Assembly: GCA_965221695.1 (NCBI GenBank)
Contig: OZ244905.1
Coordinates: forward strand, 1,632,001 to 1,696,000
Reading direction: 5' to 3'
DNA from: Gammaproteobacteria bacterium
GTDB taxonomy: Bacteria > Pseudomonadota > Gammaproteobacteria > Eutrophobiales > Eutrophobiaceae
DNA: 64,000 bases
Under the pieces are notes generated by a model. That model saw only the letters and a program-made list of their open reading frames with translations, was not told the origin of the DNA and ran no database searches. Each line of letters starts with the position of its first letter. The first letter of the stretch is position 1. This document shows positions 3,315 to 47,616 of the stretch, in pieces. A program made the position numbers and the translations under genes.

Positions 3315-3349
3315 TTAAGGAACCTCTGATTAAGTCAGAGGTTCCTTAA
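3315..3349. repeat. MITE-like family A, minimal palindromic copy
   Basis: TTAAGGAACCTCTGA-TTAAG-TCAGAGGTTCCTTAA; identical arm at 8172. Confidence 0.85.
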
Positions 3350-5271: not shown

Positions 5272-5302
5272 AGGAGACTCTGACTTGGTCGGAGGTTCCT
5301 TG
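5272..5302. repeat. MITE-like family A, degenerate copy
   Basis: AGGAGACTCTGACTTGGTCGGAGGTTCCTT resembles the family A terminal hairpin. Confidence 0.55.
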
Positions 5303-8171: not shown

Positions 8172-8330
8172 TTAAGGAACCTCTGATTAAGTCAGAGGTT
8201 CCTACGATACAAGGATGTATCGTCAATATCAATGACTGTAAGGCATTGATATTGTGAGGAAAACAAAAATCACATTTTTGTTTTCCGTACTCTGACAAGT
8301 CCAGGATGGACTTGTTCAGAGTTTCCTTAA
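8172..8330 (+). mobile_element. MITE-like family A, full-length five-hairpin copy
   Basis: Terminal inverted repeats TTAAGGAACCTCTGA / TCAGAGTTTCCTTAA enclosing five consecutive hairpins, two with GGA loops. Confidence 0.8.
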
Positions 8331-8359: not shown

Positions 8360-8396
8360 TTAAGGAAACTCTGAGACTTAATCAGAGGTTCCTTAA
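8360..8396. repeat. MITE-like family A, short palindromic copy
   Basis: TTAAGGAAACTCTGA-GACTTAA-TCAGAGGTTCCTTAA. Confidence 0.8.
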
Positions 8397-8495: not shown

Positions 8496-8699
8496 ATGAG
8501 TTACGTCGAAAAGCCGGATTGGCAAAAGTCTCTGGAACACCATGAAGAACTGTGCACAGAACGATATAAGTCCATACACAGGGACTTACAGTTCATAAGG
8601 GAAGACATGCGCGAAATGCGCACTGGTCAACGCTGGTTAATTGGCATAGTTTTGGCGTGGCCACCCTTGATCATCGCCGCCCTGCAGATGATCGCCTGA
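8496..8699 (+). CDS. Small coiled-coil plus single-TM protein (XhlA-like architecture)
   Basis: Strong SD AAGGAG; HEELCTERY..I..DL followed by the hydrophobic segment RWLIGIVLAWPPLIIAAL. Confidence 0.6.
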   Translation: MSYVEKPDWQKSLEHHEELCTERYKSIHRDLQFIREDMREMRTGQRWLIGIVLAWPPLIIAALQMIA

Positions 8700-15171: not shown

Positions 15172-17604
15172 TCAGATGAAAATGAAATAATCGTCCAGGA
15201 GAGGGGCCGTATAGTCTGCCAGAATGACATCGGACCAACCGTCCCCATCCAGGTCCACATAGGTGTCCGTTGATCCCTCCGGTACCCAGGAGCTGCCTTG
15301 GAAACCGGCTTCCCCGTAGCCTGACAGGACAATCCGGTCTCCTTGCCCCGGGTTGAAGTCGGCGATGGCATCATTGAACTCGCCCGTATCGCCGGGCTTG
15401 AACCAGAACTCATCAGCCTCTTGGCCGCCGACCAAATAGTCGGCGCCGGGCCCACCAACAAGGATGTCGTCCCCTATTCCGCCGTAAAGGGCATCGTCGC
15501 CGAGACCGCCATACAAGCGGTCATTACCGGCATCGCCGTTGAGATGATCATCGCCGCCGTCCGGCCCGCCGTAGAGCGTATCATCGCCGTCACGGCCGAA
15601 CAGTATGTTGTCACGTACATCACCCGCCAGGATGTCGTTGTGGTCAGAGCCGAAGAGATGTTCGATGTCGGGCAGGTTTGCTGTTTTCACACTGCCGTCG
15701 GCAGCGGTCCAACTTATCTCGACCCGACCGGCAAAGACATCGCCGGTGGCATCCCCGCCTTGCGCCACGTCACGGTGCAGACGCACGGTAACACCTGATG
15801 AGGAATCCAAATAGGCCGCATAGTCATCACCTAATCCGCCCGTTAGTCTATCCGCGCCCGGGCCACCAATCAGGATGTCGTCTTCATCGCCGCCGTCGAG
15901 GAGATCGTTCCCTTCATCGCCGCTTAGAATGTCATCACCCCATCCACCGTAGAGCTTATCGTTGCCGTTATGTCCGTAAATGAAGTTACCAACGAATAAT
16001 GAGTCGGTCCCCGTGAGCACGTCATCGTGCGCTGATCCCCAGATGTTTTCAATGCCGCCGCCCAGCGTGTCTCCGCTGGCATCACCGCCTCTGGCGATAC
16101 CGGTACCCAGGTTTATGGTGACGCCGGCCGGAGAGAACAGATAGGACACGGTATCGTCGCCGGAACCACCTAACAAGGTGTCCGCGCCCGGACCGCCGTC
16201 CAGGATGTCATCGCCATCTCCACCATCCAAGTGGTCATTACCATACCAGCCAAGAATGTGGTCGTCACCGGTCAGGCCGGCCAGATGGTCGTTGCCATCC
16301 GTACCTGTGAGCGAGTCATCGCCCGCGGTACCCGTAGTCGTTATCGTGCCAGGGTTAGCGCTGGGGTTACCGCCAGCAAAGATGAAGTGAGCCTCGTCCA
16401 GGCGGCCCGTATAGCCGTCAAGAACGATGTCATAATAGCCGTCTCCATCCAGATCCAACACCCGTGATCTCGAAAAGCCGGGGACTTGTGCGATCCAATT
16501 ATCAGGAACACCGGTAATGTTTCTGTAGGCGCTCACGTCAATCCGGTCTCCTTGCACCGGGTTGAAATCCAGGATCTTATCGGTGTAGTAAGAGGGCTCA
16601 TCACTGGGCTGGAACACAAACTTGTCAGCGCCAGCGCCGCCGGTCAGGATGTCATCGCCAGACTCGCCGACCAATAAGTTGTCGGCAGGGCCGCCTATCA
16701 GGATATCATCGCCTCCGCCGCCGTATATATTTTCAATTTCACCGAAGAAGATCAGATTCCAGGCGGCCGTCCCGTTAATAAAATCTATCGGCGCGTCATT
16801 GACGCTTCCCAGCCCTATGGCTATGCCTTCCTGTTCTTCAAAACCGAGAACATCTGGTGAATTACCAAGATACAGCGTGTCCACCCCGTCAGTGTCAACC
16901 AAGGTTACGGCGCTGGTCGGGAACCATCCCAACTGTTGATATAGATCAGTGTCCGGCACGTTGTGCGAGGTATATACAGTGTCCCCGGGGTTGATGCCGC
17001 CGGCTGGTTCCCCATAGAGTTCCCAGATGGCCGCTATATCATATAACATGGGTGATGCTGGGATGACGTCCAAGGCAAATTCGGCCGTGATGGGGTTGTC
17101 CGTTTCTTCACTGGCGTAAGACATGACGCTGAACAACCTGGCGTCCAAATCGTATTGTTTGCCCACGTTGTGGAGTCCCAAATCTCCGTTGTAGTCACCC
17201 GGGTGCCCCAGACCCAGGGCATGGCCAATCTCGTGGATGTAAGTGGTGAAAGAGTAGCTGTTTATGTCAGTTCCATACTCGACCAGCCAATCGGTTGATA
17301 CGTTGATGACAGACTGGATAATGATGCCGTTGTTGGTCGTTGAGTAGGCCCACGCGTCCGTTTCATGGTCTTGAAATAGGATATCGGCATCCTGACTGGC
17401 GATTTCCCGGAATGTGATGCCGGAGATTGTTGCCCAAGTGTCCAATGCCTCGCGGGCCAGGTATCTCCCTTCCCCGGTAAGGCCGGATAAGTTGACTGTG
17501 AGCATTTTATCCGGATCGAGGTCGAATATACGGCGTCCTGCTGCTCCCCAATATCCGTCCGTAAGTTGCCAGATAATGTCGTTATCGTCTTGCTGTGTAG
17601 ACAT
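15172..17604 (-). CDS. Serralysin-like M10 metalloprotease with RTX (GGxGxD) Ca-binding repeats
   Basis: HEIGHALGLGHP zinc motif, FSVMSY Met-turn, PMLYDIAAI, many GGxGDD repeats; ATG at 17604 chosen. Confidence 0.9.
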   Translation of the reverse strand: MSTQQDDNDIIWQLTDGYWGAAGRRIFDLDPDKMLTVNLSGLTGEGRYLAREALDTWATISGITFREIASQDADILFQDHETDAWAYSTTNNGIIIQSVINVSTDWLVEYGTDINSYSFTTYIHEIGHALGLGHPGDYNGDLGLHNVGKQYDLDARLFSVMSYASEETDNPITAEFALDVIPASPMLYDIAAIWELYGEPAGGINPGDTVYTSHNVPDTDLYQQLGWFPTSAVTLVDTDGVDTLYLGNSPDVLGFEEQEGIAIGLGSVNDAPIDFINGTAAWNLIFFGEIENIYGGGGDDILIGGPADNLLVGESGDDILTGGAGADKFVFQPSDEPSYYTDKILDFNPVQGDRIDVSAYRNITGVPDNWIAQVPGFSRSRVLDLDGDGYYDIVLDGYTGRLDEAHFIFAGGNPSANPGTITTTGTAGDDSLTGTDGNDHLAGLTGDDHILGWYGNDHLDGGDGDDILDGGPGADTLLGGSGDDTVSYLFSPAGVTINLGTGIARGGDASGDTLGGGIENIWGSAHDDVLTGTDSLFVGNFIYGHNGNDKLYGGWGDDILSGDEGNDLLDGGDEDDILIGGPGADRLTGGLGDDYAAYLDSSSGVTVRLHRDVAQGGDATGDVFAGRVEISWTAADGSVKTANLPDIEHLFGSDHNDILAGDVRDNILFGRDGDDTLYGGPDGGDDHLNGDAGNDRLYGGLGDDALYGGIGDDILVGGPGADYLVGGQEADEFWFKPGDTGEFNDAIADFNPGQGDRIVLSGYGEAGFQGSSWVPEGSTDTYVDLDGDGWSDVILADYTAPLLDDYFIFI

Positions 17605-17605
17605 A

Positions 17606-17690
17606 TTGAATTTGAGAGCAAAACAAAAATCGCATTTTTGTTTTACGTGCTCTGAACAAGTCAAGGATGGATTTGTTCAGAGCTTCCATA
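17606..17690 (+). repeat. MITE-like family A, right half
   Basis: AAAACAAAAATCGCATTTTTGTTTT and CTCTGAACAAGTCAAGGATGGATTTGTTCAGAGCTTCC match 8258-8330. Confidence 0.8.
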
Positions 17691-17754
17691 GTATTTCTTT
17701 GAAATTGGACTGTATTCTGACAGCATGGTTTTGTCCAATATATCCAAACAACTT

Positions 17755-17845
17755 TGGCGGAGAGAGAGGGATTCGAACCCTCGATGGGCTTTTAACCCAT
17801 ACTCCCTTAGCAGGGGAGCGCCTTCAGCCACTCGGCCACCTCTCC
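17755..17845 (-). tRNA. tRNA-Ser(GCT)
   Basis: Reverse complement GGAGAGGTGGCCGAGTGGCTGAAGGCGCTCCCCT-GCT-AAGGGAG...GAGGGTTCGAATCCCTCTCTCTCCGCCA with long variable arm; usual position after csrA. Confidence 0.97.
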
Positions 17846-17913: not shown

Positions 17914-18189
17914 TTACTTATCTTCATCGTGGTATTCCGGATCGCCGTCGTTGACTTCCAGACTGGCGTCTTCCTCCGATTCATCCATGTACTCCTGGGC
18001 AAGCTGGGCTTTCGCCTTCTTGACCTTTTCAAGTTGGATGCGCTCGTAGATTTCCTCCCGATGCACCGCAATTTCTTTGGGAGCGTTGACTCCGATGCGG
18101 ACCTGGTTGCCGCGTATTCCGAGTATGGTTACATTGACATCATCTCCAATCATCAGAGACTCGCCAATCCTACGTGTTAGTATCAACAT
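17914..18189 (-). CDS. csrA: Carbon storage regulator CsrA with acidic C-terminal extension
   Basis: [18 protein letters not shown]...[25 protein letters not shown]. Confidence 0.97.
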
Positions 18190-24327: not shown

Positions 24328-24482
24328 GATACTTCCCTCAATGTGTGGCTGGTCGAATAATTCTGGTCCGGATAGACTTCATCAAAATCTTATTGCCTAT
24401 ACTGACACAACTTGTTGATTGAAGTCAACAGCTCTATTAAATCCTGTTATAAAAAATTCAGGTGGAATGATGTGTCACCCAT

Positions 24483-24921
24483 CCACCGTACCACTCCCGC
24501 GAAAACGGGAGTCCAGTCGAATACTGTGTCACCCGAAGGGCGACGCTTTGTTTCACTGGATTCCCGCTTGCGCGGGAATGGGATGGGAAGCACTCCCGCG
24601 TACCCTGCCACCGTACCACTCCCGCGGAAGCGGGAGTTCAGTCAAATACTGTGTCACCCGAAGGGCGACGCTTTGTTTCACTGGATTCCCGTTTTCACGG
24701 GAATGGGATGGGGAGCACTCCCGCGTACCCTGCCACCGTACCACTCCCGCGGAAGCGGGAGTCCAGTCAAATACTGTGTCGCCCGAAGGGCGACGCTTTG
24801 TTTCACTGGATTCCCGTTTTCACTGGAATGGGATGGGGAGCACTCCCGCGTGCCCTGCCACCGTACCACTCCCGCGGAAGCGGGAGTCCAGTCAAATACT
24901 GTGTCGCCCAGAGGGCGACTC
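24483..24921 (+). repeat. Tandem array of 125-bp REP-like units (about 3.5 copies, family B)
   Basis: Unit starts CCACCGTACCACTCCCGC at 24483, 24608, 24733, 24858; hairpins ACTCCCGC..GCGGGAGT, GTCGCCC-GAA-GGGCGAC, ATTCCCG..CGGGAAT. Confidence 0.92.
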
Positions 24922-24927
24922 GTTATT

Positions 24928-26220
24928 TCACAGGTTTTGCATCTCCTTTGCCGCTGCCAGTGAAGCGAGCCGGGCAATAACGCCATAGCTGTAAAACCGG
25001 TTCGGCTGGGCATCCGGCGATTTTTCCTTGTCCGGGGAGTTGCAGGATTCCTCGAATGCCAGACGCTCGAAATACATGCCCGGAGCGTTCAGGTTTTCAT
25101 TGCTGGCACGTTGCGGGTGCACCCGGTAGAAACCGCCTACCACGTTCTGGTCAATGAGGTATACCACCGGTTCGGCGACCGTACCGGGACTACCCCAGGT
25201 TTCGTGGGTATGCACACCCTCCTGCAGAATAGCCTTGGTCACCTTCTGCCCTTCTTTGACAGTCGCCATTTTTGTTCTTTGTTTACGATTCAGGTCGTGA
25301 ACTTCCTCAGGGGTTTGTACAGACATCACCCCCATGCCGTAAGTGCCGGAATCCGCTTTGATCATCACGAATGGATCACTGGTTATGCCATACTCTTCGT
25401 ATTTCTTACGGATCGCGTTCAGCAGTGATTCCACGTTTCTTGACAAGCAGGATTCGCCTGCGCGCTTCATAAAGTCCACTTCCCCACAGTTGCGGAACAG
25501 GGGCTCAATCAGCCAGGGATCGATATCCAGCAGCGCGGCGAAATCGCGGGCGATGTCCCGGTAAAAATTGAAATGAACGGTTTTCGACCTGTCCGACCAA
25601 CCCAGTCTGACCGGGGGCATAATACGCTGCTCCACTCCTGTCAGAAAATCGGGCACACCAGAGGACAAATCATTGTTCAGTATCAACAGATCCGGCCGGA
25701 AATCCCGCACGCACACGTCCGCCCCCTCTCTTAGCAGTGGCTCCAGGCGTATCGACGCCCCGCTGTCCAGCTCGATCGTCAGCTCTTCTTCCAACCCCGG
25801 CAACAGGGAACCCATCCGGGTCTCGAAACCCGCTTTTTCAAATATCCCCTGTAACACGGCAAGGTTCTCCAGGTAATGCCTGTTTCGGGTATGATTTTCG
25901 GGAACGATCAACACCCGGTCGACCGGCTGTTCCAACCGCTCCAGCGCCGACTGCGCCGCCTGTATGCACAGGGACTCGAAGGCCGGGTTGAGGTTATTAA
26001 ACCCGCCGGGAAACAGGTTGGTGTCGACCGGCGCTATCTTGTAGCCCGCATTTCTCAGGTCGACGGACGCATACAACGGTGCCGGTGTATTACGCCACTG
26101 GGAGCGAAACCAGGATTCGATCCTGGTCTGATGATCCAGGATGATGCTCTCAATGATATTCAACGGCCCAGTCAGAGCCGTCTTCAGATGCGGCACCGTG
26201 TCTATTGCGGTAGCAACCAT
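24928..26220 (-). CDS. gshA: Glutamate--cysteine ligase (beta/gammaproteobacterial GshA type)
   Basis: VPHLKTALTGPL, SVDLRNAGYKIAPVDTNLFPGGFNNL, PENHTRN, KADSGTYGMG, NLNAPGM, YGVIARL. Confidence 0.9.
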   Translation of the reverse strand: MVATAIDTVPHLKTALTGPLNIIESIILDHQTRIESWFRSQWRNTPAPLYASVDLRNAGYKIAPVDTNLFPGGFNNLNPAFESLCIQAAQSALERLEQPVDRVLIVPENHTRNRHYLENLAVLQGIFEKAGFETRMGSLLPGLEEELTIELDSGASIRLEPLLREGADVCVRDFRPDLLILNNDLSSGVPDFLTGVEQRIMPPVRLGWSDRSKTVHFNFYRDIARDFAALLDIDPWLIEPLFRNCGEVDFMKRAGESCLSRNVESLLNAIRKKYEEYGITSDPFVMIKADSGTYGMGVMSVQTPEEVHDLNRKQRTKMATVKEGQKVTKAILQEGVHTHETWGSPGTVAEPVVYLIDQNVVGGFYRVHPQRASNENLNAPGMYFERLAFEESCNSPDKEKSPDAQPNRFYSYGVIARLASLAAAKEMQNL

Positions 26221-26266
26221 AGCGGGTTTTCCAGATTAATGAAGCGGGTATTATATGAAATATGCC

Positions 26267-26305
26267 CTGGACAAGTCCATCCTGGACTTGTTCAGAGCTT
26301 CCTAA
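26267..26305 (-). repeat. MITE-like family A fragment between rsmE and gshA
   Basis: ACAAGTCCATCCTGGACTTGTTCAGAGCTTCCTAA; GGA loop on minus strand. Confidence 0.75.
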
Positions 26306-26317
26306 AACAGGTTCCGG

Positions 26318-27081: not shown

Positions 27082-27148
27082 GTTCCAACGGTATGGGGAT
27101 ACGCCGTCTCTGTAGTACTCCGGATGGACTTGTTCAGAGCTTCCTTTA
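27082..27148 (+). repeat. MITE-like family A, internally deleted copy
   Basis: GTTCCAACGGTATGGGGATACGCCGT...CCGGATGGACTTGTTCAGAGCTTCCTTT. Confidence 0.65.
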
Positions 27149-27158
27149 AAATAGGCGA

Positions 27159-27653: not shown

Positions 27654-28109
27654 GTGTTAGATAAAATCATATCCGGTGGCCAGACGGGCGTGGATCGGGC
27701 CGCGCTGGACAGCGCTATTTTCCTTGATATCCCCCACGGCGGCTGGTGCCCAGCCGGCAGGAGAGCGGAGGACGGAACGATTCCCGCGCGTTACCACCTG
27801 ATTGAAACGGATGCGCCGGAATATGTTGACAGGACACGAAAAAACGTTGAAGACAGCGACGGAACACTGATCCTGAACAGCAAACAGTTGGAGGGAGGCA
27901 CGGCAGCAACCCTGGCTTTTGCCAGGAGTTTGAGCAAGCCGGTTATGGTCATCAATCTCGACGACCCTCCAGAAACAGACGCTATCCGCAACTGGCTGGC
28001 AGCCAACCGGATAAAACATTGTAACGTGGCAGGCCCGCGGGAAAGCAAACGGCCGGGGATTTACCGGCAAACCTGCAGTTATCTCAGAATAGTATTAGGG
28101 AAACTCTGA
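27654..28109 (+). CDS. Putative molybdenum carrier / circularly permuted YpsA SLOG protein
   Basis: KIISGGQTGVDRAALD, GGWCPAGRRAEDG, RTRKNVEDSDGTL, NVAGPRES; start approximate. Confidence 0.85.
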   Translation: MLDKIISGGQTGVDRAALDSAIFLDIPHGGWCPAGRRAEDGTIPARYHLIETDAPEYVDRTRKNVEDSDGTLILNSKQLEGGTAATLAFARSLSKPVMVINLDDPPETDAIRNWLAANRIKHCNVAGPRESKRPGIYRQTCSYLRIVLGKL

Positions 28110-28114
28110 CTTAA
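28095..28114. repeat. MITE-like family A half-arm overlapping a stop codon
   Basis: TTAGGGAAACTCTGACTTAA. Confidence 0.55.
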
Positions 28115-29724: not shown

Positions 29725-29753
29725 AAGAGTATCCTCCATGAATTTAGGTAATT

Positions 29754-29880
29754 TTAAGAAGCTCCGGACAAGTCCATCCAGGACTTGTCAGAGCGCGCAG
29801 TGGCCATCCTCGGATGTCCACATCCACTCCGGGTGGATTTGTGACGATACGTCCGTGTATCGCCGGAAACTCTGACTTAA
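29754..29880 (-). mobile_element. MITE-like family A, near full-length copy, reverse orientation
   Basis: ACAAGTCCATCCAGGACTTGTCAGAG ... ACGATACGTCCGTGTATCG ... GGAAACTCTGACTTAA; GGA-bearing hairpins on minus strand. Confidence 0.75.
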
Positions 29881-30173
29881 CGATGCTTCAGGTATGAGCC
29901 AACCTGAAACTTCATGCCAAGCGCGCGTAAAATCGGCGCAAGTGTGGACCAGCGCGGATTGCCTTTTTCAGAGAGCGCCCGATACAGGCTTTCCCTGGGG
30001 ATACCCACTCTTTGTACCAGTTGTGACATGCCCTGAGTCTCAGCCATATTGCGCAGAGCCAGCAGAAAGACAGCCGGTTCTTCGTCTTCAGCCGCAGCAG
30101 TCAGGTATTCGGCGGCAAATGTCGGATCTTCCAATTGCTTGTGCAGCCAATCATTGTGTTTTACGGTTTTCAT
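29877..30173 (-). CDS. Addiction module antidote protein (HTH, HI1420/HigA-like)
   Basis: AAEYL..A.ED, LALRNMAETQGMS, RESLYRALSEKGNP. Confidence 0.88.
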   Translation of the reverse strand: MKTVKHNDWLHKQLEDPTFAAEYLTAAAEDEEPAVFLLALRNMAETQGMSQLVQRVGIPRESLYRALSEKGNPRWSTLAPILRALGMKFQVGSYLKHR

Positions 30174-31327: not shown

Positions 31328-31492
31328 ACCATTCCCGTCCAAACGGGAATCCAGTGAACAAAGAGTCGCCCTTCGGGCAACACAGTATTTGACTGGACTC
31401 CCGCTTTCGCGGGAGTGGTACGGGGGAAGGCAAGCGCCTGTGCCGACAGCTACATGCAATCTGGGTGTGTAGAGACCTGATCATGAGGGTTT
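31328..31492 (-). repeat. REP-like family B single unit with AGAGACCTGATCATGA tail
   Basis: Reverse complement of the 125-bp unit; tail shared with 44174-44332. Confidence 0.8.
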
Positions 31493-44173: not shown

Positions 44174-44332
44174 ACCATTCCCGTGTAAACGGGAATCCAG
44201 TGAATTAAAGGGTCGCCTTTCAGGCGACACAGTATTTGACTGGACTCCCGCTGTTGCGGGAGTGGTACGGAGGAATGCCCAGGTCTGCGCCAACAGTTAC
44301 ATGTCTGTGCAGAGACCTGATCATGAAGGTTT
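44174..44332 (-). repeat. REP-like family B single unit with AGAGACCTGATCATGA tail
   Basis: Same orientation and tail as 31328-31492. Confidence 0.8.
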
Positions 44333-44500
44333 AGGAAGCTCTAGTTAAGTCAGAAGTTCCAACGGCACATGGATGCGCCGTCAAAAAATGAGTTTATATC
44401 ATTGATTTTGTGAGAACAAATCGGCAGGACAGCCAATTTGCACAACCGCTTTTTTACGCTCTCTGACAGGTCCTGGATGGATTTGTTCAGGGCTTCCTTT
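44331..44500 (+). mobile_element. MITE-like family A, diverged full-length copy
   Basis: TTAGGAAGCTCT..TTAAGTCAGAAGTTCC, ACGGCACATGGATGCGCCGT, CTCTGACAGGTCCTGGATGGATTTGTTCAGGGCTTCCTT. Confidence 0.75.
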
Positions 44501-44527
44501 ATATAGTAAAAAGTGGCAATACATGCT

Positions 44528-45841: not shown

Positions 45842-45870
45842 GGAAGCTTTGACTTAATCAGAGGTTCCTT
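45842..45870. repeat. MITE-like family A terminal hairpin overlapping the sulfatase stop
   Basis: GGAAGCTTTGACTTAATCAGAGGTTCCTT. Confidence 0.7.
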
Positions 45871-47458: not shown

Positions 47459-47523
47459 TGCCTATCTTATCGGCGGTCATATCCTGCACATCCTGCGTAG
47501 ACGCCCGATATGCGTCGGTTAAT

Positions 47524-47606
47524 TTAAGGAAGCTCTGACAAGCCCATCCAGGACTTGTCAGAGCACGCAAAACAAAAATGCGATTTTATTTTACTCACAA
47601 AATGAA
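47524..47606 (-). repeat. MITE-like family A half copy, reverse orientation
   Basis: TTAAGGAAGCTCTGACAAGCCCATCCAGGACTTGTCAGAG...AAAACAAAAATGCGATTTT. Confidence 0.8.
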
Positions 47607-47616
47607 TGTGGAGGAG

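Follow-up and report, generated by a model that had tools for sequence, protein, structure and literature searches.

A five-hairpin IS5-family miniature element with GGA loops resembling CsrA-binding sites in a gammaproteobacterial genome

The element at 8176-8326 and its transposon family

The locus described here lies in a stretch of 64,000 nucleotides (nt), hereafter the window, covering positions 1,632,001 to 1,696,000 of contig OZ244905.1 (assembly GCA_965221695.1, a gammaproteobacterium of the Eutrophobiaceae), part of a single contig of 3,539,060 base pairs (bp) with 55% G+C. At window positions 8176-8326 it carries a non-coding 151-bp element, GGAACCTCTGA...TCAGAGTTTCC, that sequence, fold, and copy searches securely identify as a non-autonomous transposable element of the miniature inverted-repeat kind (MITE) in the IS5 family. 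It is bounded by the target-site duplication TTAA on the left (8172-8175) and on the right (8327-8330), the two flanks matching within the copy and corresponding to a single TTAA in the closest relative. Selection at the level of the element on its five hairpins, above all on two GGA loops, is well supported by the comparisons below, and from the distribution of copies among genes it follows that the strands differ in their effect when the element is part of a transcript that continues into a downstream gene.

Read on the + strand, termed here the GGA-loop strand, the element folds into five consecutive hairpins. H1 (8176-8202, +) pairs the left terminal repeat with its own inverted copy, a 27-nt unit also found as a solo mini element. 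H2 (8204-8223, +) comprises an 8-bp stem and the loop AGGA at 8212-8215, with positions 8207-8218 reading AUACAAGGAUGU. H3 (8224-8254, +) is a covarying stem with a variable, often GNRA-like loop, and H4 (8258-8286, +) a 13-bp A/U-rich stem with a loop around CAC. H5 (8289-8322, +) bears a loop GGA at 8304-8306 within CCAGGAUGG, and overlaps the right terminal repeat (8316-8326). A preliminary description, made from the sequence alone, had given a 159-bp element with inverted-repeat ends and five hairpins; its coordinates, loops, and hairpins stand, with the correction that the outer TTAA is the target duplication and lies outside the inverted repeat. The predicted free energy of the + strand RNA is -79.8 kcal/mol (z = -12.3), a stability that none of 200 shuffles attains, and the - strand folds nearly as well (-76.2 kcal/mol, z = -11.7). 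Over the family, predictions favor the + strand RNA as the more stable one for 130 of 153 copies and, among the subfamily representatives, for 14 of 20. Promoter- and terminator-like matches within the element are no more frequent than in shuffles; one mini element, with TTTCCTTAA directly after it, was scored as resembling a terminator.

In the genome of the window (G000), blastn with the 159-nt stretch recovers 380 pieces at E <= 1e-3, including 87 full copies (at least 145 of the 159 nt; 44 on the + and 43 on the - strand), 50 of which show at least 95% identity, and a profile search with nhmmer yields 242 matches, of which 90 are close to full length. In each orientation the genome has about 470 occurrences of the 11-nt end motif, most commonly at spacings of 27 nt (141), 29 nt (65), and 151 nt (30), and 140 solo mini units of 26-31 nt consist of the two ends only, with identical 4-nt flanks in 50. 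Among the 4-nt flanks TTAA is commonest, followed by CTAA, TTAG, CTAG, TTTA, CTTA, TATA, and CTCA; as these tetramers vary among copies yet agree within a copy, they indicate a 4-bp target duplication at T/C-T-A-A/G-like sites. At the focal locus the closest relative (G008) has the empty site gagTTAAtttacc, with one TTAA in a flank that is 96% identical, and a DNA-run contig joins 8171 directly to 8327 without the element, so that the focal copy is a recent insertion. A neighboring 29-nt mini element is common to both genomes.

Of 22 other species of the genus, 19 carry the element, as do four of 18 sampled genomes of other genera in the class, and the 27-nt H1 unit occurs, among the matches listed, in records labeled Pseudohongiella, Gammaproteobacteria, Chromatiales, Acidiferrobacterales, and others. 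A small share of the stretch turns up in many sponge-metagenome runs, and a plasmid search returned three weak matches to the right end only and no copy carried on a plasmid. In a congener, one copy (L066 in genome G003) has a hairpin-forming insertion of about 48 nt inside the H4 loop, which points to a nested mini element.

The ends had been likened to those of the IS5 subgroup with YTAR targets, and they are indeed shared with IS5-family insertion sequences, alongside 4-bp YTAR-like duplications. The right end together with H5 finds its match in one end of an IS5-family element annotated on the Achromobacter xylosoxidans plasmid pA81 (NC_006830.1), in which an H5-like hairpin stands at the transposase-proximal end. 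Within a comparison set of 41 related genomes, 13 encode homologs of the pA81 transposase at 47-48% identity over the full length. Those of G014, G022, and G001 sit in 1149-1151-bp elements with both ends reading GGAACCTCTGAT(C/T)AAG... and with YTAR-like flanking tetramers, and the ends of 1149-1198-bp elements at L119-L122, viz., GGAACCTCTGA(T/A)CAAG, match the MITE ends. The IS5-type open reading frames (ORFs) of the congeners are 47-48% identical to a RefSeq-annotated IS5-family transposase, several of them with in-frame stops. Neither H2-H4 nor, close to the ends, a GGATG occurs in these congener insertion sequences; hence, H2-H4 are not required by the transposase. The genome of the window itself has no PF01609 match and no homolog of the pA81 transposase, and long-range pairs of the ends in it enclose ordinary genes only, with no transposase-like ORF. 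The proposal to look for an IS5 transposase with the same ends, and for empty sites, thus led to partners in congeners and to an empty site in G008, with none of the former in the window genome. We suggest that the MITE would be cut and pasted by transposase supplied in trans by the ~1150-bp same-ended insertion sequences of congeners. A hairpin repeat of the repetitive extragenic palindromic (REP)/RAYT or IS200/IS605 type was considered and rejected, as the genome has no Y1/HUH transposase (PF01797) and the element shows both a 4-bp duplication and terminal inverted repeats. Only one insertion sequence of G000 is multi-copy; it is 1309 bp long, with ends TGAACCGCCCCGG unrelated to the MITE, and occurs in three nearly identical copies (G000:C1 187834-189142, 440967-442275, and 2302880-2304188).

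Conservation of the hairpins, CsrA likeness, and orientation relative to genes

Covariation was assessed in 76 sequences less than 95% alike from at least 10 genomes. The five-hairpin structure has 92.3% of its cells paired versus 85.8% in shuffles; 33 pairs are changed on both sides versus 18.3 +/- 2.0 in shuffles, with none of 500 shuffles reaching 33; and the covariation score is 0.21 versus 0.03-0.05 with slid partners. Because the 76 sequences are related, the shuffle control overstates the significance, and the slid control is free of that weakness. On clustering, 153 full copies fall into 20 subfamilies, across which the two GGA triplets rank first in conservation among the interior positions (top-base fraction 0.95-0.98; permutation p = 0.00015), to be compared with 0.79 for the interior columns, 0.83-0.85 for the terminal repeats, 0.69 for the H3 loop, and 0.72 for the H4 loop. 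The earlier claim that the stems diverge and the GGA loop is kept is therefore borne out on both counts, by the covariation of the stems and by a loop conservation specific to the GGA loops.

The level at which this constraint acts emerges from a young subfamily of 59 copies, where stems, loops, and linkers have 0.022, 0.029, and 0.026 substitutions per site per copy, respectively. Individual copies decay neutrally, and the similar rates indicate that the constraint acts on the lineage that is still transposing and not on single copies. Together with the congener insertion sequences that lack H2-H4, this shows that the five-hairpin interior is kept by selection on the element lineage and was not inherited from those insertion sequences. 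An attempt to read the strand of selection from G-U versus A-C mismatches was abandoned: raw counts favor the + strand, and the excess vanishes with distinct or rare events (rare G-T versus A-C events, 36 versus 33).

The two GGA loops resemble the sites of the global post-transcriptional regulator CsrA. The consensus obtained by systematic evolution of ligands by exponential enrichment (SELEX) reads RUACARGGAUGU; its ACA and GGA are invariant, and the GGA is presented in the loop of a hairpin, as summarized in a passage of PMC4347634 citing Dubey et al. 2005. H2 matches it at 12 of 12 positions in 8207-8218, with its GGA in the loop of a short hairpin; the H2 versions of other subfamilies, AUACAGGGAUGU or GUACAGGGAUGU, are likewise perfect matches, and H5 displays CAGGAUG. 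Of the 103 perfect RUACARGGAUGU matches in the genome, 99 lie in this element family, so that the proposed fit of the GGA hairpin loops to the CsrA consensus is upheld. The csrA gene is present in 38 of the 41 related genomes, which renders its co-occurrence with the element uninformative.

A kinship with known GGA-rich RNAs had also been suggested, and is not supported. The Rfam scan over the element returned no family match at E <= 10, TwoAYGGAY, CsrB, and RsmY/Z included. Genome scans with the respective models gave no match for CsrB, a best score of 20 bits against a cut-off of 57 for RsmY, and 14.3 against 44 for RsmZ, and a genome scan for GacA boxes gave no convincing sponge gene. The best sub-threshold RsmY match overlaps the 3' end of a cold-shock-like gene. 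TwoAYGGAY has no match genome-wide at E <= 1, in a search that is weak in power because control genomes gave no match either.

The orientation of full copies relative to genes, as called with a simple codon-usage caller, is strongly skewed; a check of the strand calls in 19 randomly drawn cases found a Pfam match at E <= 1e-5 for 35 of the 38 flanking ORFs. Between co-directional genes of the window genome the GGA strand is sense in 12 copies and antisense in 30 (p = 0.008); in nine other genomes (65 copies) the corresponding numbers are 9 and 32 (p = 0.0004), and over all 10 genomes 21 and 62 (p = 7.5e-6). Antisense copies exceed sense copies in nine of these genomes, with a tie in one, and the skew holds in tight (13:36, sense:antisense) and loose (8:26) spacers alike. 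In convergent (12:12) and divergent (23:25) contexts, orientation with respect to the nearest gene is unbiased. A replication-strand bias was examined as a source of the skew and discarded (46 of 90). In tandem contexts the element typically lies about 18 nt past the upstream stop and 40-60 nt ahead of the next start, and would therefore often be co-transcribed. The contrary claim, a sense-strand bias drawn from five of seven GGA-bearing copies being sense, is correct as a count for the window and does not extend to the genome or to the 10 genomes; the window is a small-sample exception.

These ratios bear directly on the idea that host transcripts gain useful CsrA sites through the spread of the element, or that its copies form a distributed CsrA sponge, the copies being maintained for host benefit. 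The perfect H2 match and second GGA loop in H5, the conservation of these loops across subfamilies, the finding of no conventional sponge of the CsrB/RsmY/RsmZ type at Rfam thresholds, and the five sense copies in the window would all be congenial to such a role. Against it, the GGA strand is depleted as sense where co-transcription is expected, stems, loops, and linkers decay equally, each element offers two GGA sites that are mostly antisense where co-transcribed, there is no promoter or terminator signal of its own above chance, and the closest relative lacks the focal copy. As the copies are recent, polymorphic, and neutrally decaying, they are not evolved host control sites, and the regulatory role once proposed for them finds no support. 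Such adaptive readings fit the data worst, and we regard them as very unlikely.

A second alternative places the action of the hairpins at the DNA level and takes the CsrA likeness as coincidental: cruciform or single-stranded structures, or a GGATG-containing site for a host or transposase protein, might aid transposition, or palindromes might correct themselves by template switching, with the orientation skew arising from another strand-specific feature, e.g., a weak terminator made up of H5 and the UUUCCUUAA after it. The near-equal folding of both strands and the symmetry of the rare mismatches are compatible with this, as are one copy with an inverted H5 loop (typical of DNA hairpin dynamics), the terminator-like call on the mini element, and an unrelated second repeat family with ACAGGAT/CATGGATG in its terminal repeats, where a DNA role is the more natural one. 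The same-ended autonomous insertion sequences without H2-H4 and without GGATG near their ends speak against it. Most subfamilies, moreover, have CUUCC and not UUUCC after H5 and are biased nonetheless; template switching accounts for paired stems but not for loops better kept than stems; and the reader of DNA hairpins, a Y1/HUH transposase, is absent from the genome. On balance, a purely DNA-level role appears rather doubtful.

The antisense excess can also be turned around, by supposing that it is the opposite strand that works: its loops, CAUCCUG and CAUCCUUG, are anti-Shine-Dalgarno-like and might be the target of selection, e.g., by making insertions in that orientation harmless or useful. 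Such is the orientation of 62 of the 83 copies between co-directional genes, and the related insertion-sequence end on pA81 lies the same way round when read in the sense of its transposase. Yet it is the + strand whose RNA is predicted to be the more stable one in most copies and subfamilies and that fits a published protein-binding consensus at 12 of 12 positions, whereas UCC fits no specific, testable target and no mechanism is at hand; we consider a function of the opposite strand improbable.

Other copies and neighboring features in the window

The terminal motif has 23 matches in the window against 3.67 expected, a number that none of 100 shuffles reaches, and it marks all 12 loci listed in the preliminary description. 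Nine of these are recovered by nhmmer; the mini copy at 8360 is included only within a long - strand alignment, the loci at 5272 and 45842 are mini copies found by a repeat search of the window, the locus at 28095 is a solo end fragment only, and a separate nhmmer match at 29840 is part of the 29754 copy. Mini elements lie at 3319-3345 (27 nt), 5273-5299 (diverged), 8364-8392 (29 nt, the two terminal repeats only, with TTAA on both sides; the one also present in the closest relative), and 45842-45868. Two partial copies consist of H4-H5 and the right end, namely 17604-17691 (+), antisense to its flanking genes, and 47522-47611 (-), with the GGA strand sense to its flanking genes. An old diverged full copy with about 69% identity (44329-44502, +) is antisense to the flanking genes, and a rearranged copy with parts of H2 and H5 (29751-29881, -) has its GGA strand sense to the flanking - strand genes. 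The remaining fragments are a solo left end (28099-28114, +), a short right end 9 nt upstream of a + strand gene (27120-27150, +), and a right end at 26257-26308 with the H5 loop inverted relative to its terminal repeat (ATCCT on the right-end strand), a hairpin-loop flip at 26263-26302.

The csrA gene, as had been stated, lies within the window, at 17914-18189 (-), with a Pfam CsrA match at 18034-18189, and is the only csrA found in the genome. The partial copy at 17604-17691 is situated just downstream of csrA and a transfer RNA (tRNA) gene and abuts the stop of its upstream gene; the tRNA of this csrA-tRNA pair is at 17758-17845 (-). Just downstream of the focal copy, an ORF of 67 amino acids at 8496-8699 (+) has a good Shine-Dalgarno sequence and a hydrophobic C-terminus; it is kept in G008 and is covered, at about 91% likeness, by contigs of two metatranscriptome runs. 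Elsewhere in the window, a tandem repeat with a 125-bp period occupies 24477-24937, with three overlapping 211-nt copies at 90-94% identity, and a G+C-rich repeat family of about 97 nt (84% identity, hairpins of the CCCGC...GCGGG type) occurs at 31360-31456 and 44207-44303 as well as at genome positions 1656681, 1226001, and 1525571.

Outside the window, the genome houses the second dispersed repeat family mentioned above. Its terminal units of about 30 nt, TTAACATGGATGTACAGGATATACAGGAT(G), also carry CAGGAT/CATGGATG motifs and are arranged in head-to-head pairs (palindromes some 70 nt long) and in arrays within divergent intergenic regions, frequently next to copies of the five-hairpin MITE. 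Its 17-mer has 51 matches at up to two mismatches, 37 of them intergenic, with 11 head-to-head pairs; examples are at G000:C1 1395230-1395510, 1192342-1192410, and 780652-780720, among others.

Proposed explanation and comparison with known systems

We propose that the element is a selfish MITE, with GGA hairpins that the family as a whole retains and that are harmful if co-transcribed in sense, such insertions being purged through CsrA or a similar reader, and we assign this a probability of roughly one half. Co-transcription with the GGA strand as sense would display the loops of H2 and H5 as near-ideal predicted CsrA ligands; CsrA, or another factor reading exposed GGA/Shine-Dalgarno-like loops, would bind them and lower the expression of the downstream gene; and GGA-sense insertions would then be purged, which would account for only about a quarter of the copies between co-directional genes being GGA-sense. 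The GGA loops are the main conserved strand-asymmetric feature of the element. The tail of H5 is U-rich only in the focal subfamily whereas the skew is general, so that exposed GGA loops on the sense RNA offer the simplest mechanism. For the cause of the harm in sense orientation, CsrA binding is the leading candidate.

Several points weigh against this proposal. Should sense-oriented GGA loops do harm, some other benefit has to account for how strongly the family conserves them, and we can name none; besides, GGA conserved on one strand is UCC conserved on the other, and the mostly co-transcribed strand shows UCC. Partial copies have a weaker bias or none (7:4, 7:12, and 10:19). Both GGA loops are kept in 17 of the 21 sense and 54 of the 62 antisense copies, and this equal retention gives no sign of escape mutations. 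Species within one genus are not fully independent, and the gene caller was home-made. Support for transcription comes from one sponge metatranscriptome, in which pieces of the element occur at 90-95% likeness in Logan contigs; these carry no strand, level, or transcript ends, and may reflect DNA carry-over. A second RNA run covers only the neighboring small ORF at 8496-8699.

The CsrA likeness can also be taken a step further, to a MITE with genuine high-affinity CsrA hairpins as its selected feature. Its insertions would put neighboring genes under CsrA control and would be purged sense-wise from operons as usually harmful, with the surviving transcribed copies serving as CsrA decoys in genomes where no CsrB/Rsm RNA is detectable. 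We judge this stronger version unlikely; were it true, mobile DNA would rank among the chief sources of CsrA-regulon turnover.

The wider interest of the selfish-MITE proposal lies in the fact that MITEs are usually seen either as inert or as supplying rudimentary promoters, terminators, or RNase sites, and here 99 of the 103 perfect genomic matches to the best-known binding consensus of a global regulator sit in one family. Across diverged subfamilies the element keeps its GGA loops better than its own ends, and it shows a three-to-one orientation skew where co-transcription is expected. If CsrA binds, mobile elements would be a means of fast gain, loss, or perturbation of post-transcriptional control, and the orientation skew would furnish a cheap genomic read-out of its cost. 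If CsrA does not bind, the family would still be a clear-cut example of a cut-and-paste transposon with selection, at the level of the element, on its RNA or DNA hairpins, needing an explanation of its own. By title or abstract, none of the papers found by a search on MITEs and IS5 describes this element. No link of CsrA with MITEs or REP-type repeats was found, the REP part being judged by titles and the beginnings of abstracts, and a term search of the text of a 2024 review of prokaryotic MITEs (PMC10969869) found the words CsrA, Hfq, and RNA-binding absent.

Among described systems, the closest in habit are the Correia/NEMIS repeats of Neisseria and the ERIC/IRU repeats of enterobacteria, which, as far as the account in that review goes (PMC10969869), are likewise about 100-160 bp long, numerous, intergenic, co-transcribed, and RNA-folding; it reports processing by RNase III for Correia repeats and by RNase E for ERIC, with known orientation- and RNase-dependent effects on messenger RNA. 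They differ from the present element in belonging to other transposase families with other targets, in forming one long fold-back where the MITE has five separate covarying hairpins, and in lacking loops that match the consensus of a defined regulator. The IS5-family elements, viz., that of pA81 and the ~1150-bp elements of G014, G022, and G001, share with it the GGAACCTCTGA ends and the 4-bp T/C-T-A-A/G duplication; unlike them, the MITE has no transposase, and its H2-H4 interior is missing from those insertion sequences. Known sponge RNAs carry many GGA sites each. Unlike CsrB, RsmY, and RsmZ, the element is not an RNA gene and has two GGA sites per unit. TwoAYGGAY (Rfam RF01731; Weinberg et al. 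2010, PMC2864571) resembles it in having two hairpins with GGA loops, in its occurrence in Gammaproteobacteria, and in having no known function; the loops of the element, in contrast, are NGGAUG and not AYGGAY, and the architecture is different. With the high-affinity CsrA/RsmA ligands, on the portion of the SELEX work summarized in PMC4347634, it has in common that ACA and GGA are the most conserved parts of both the SELEX consensus and the element family.

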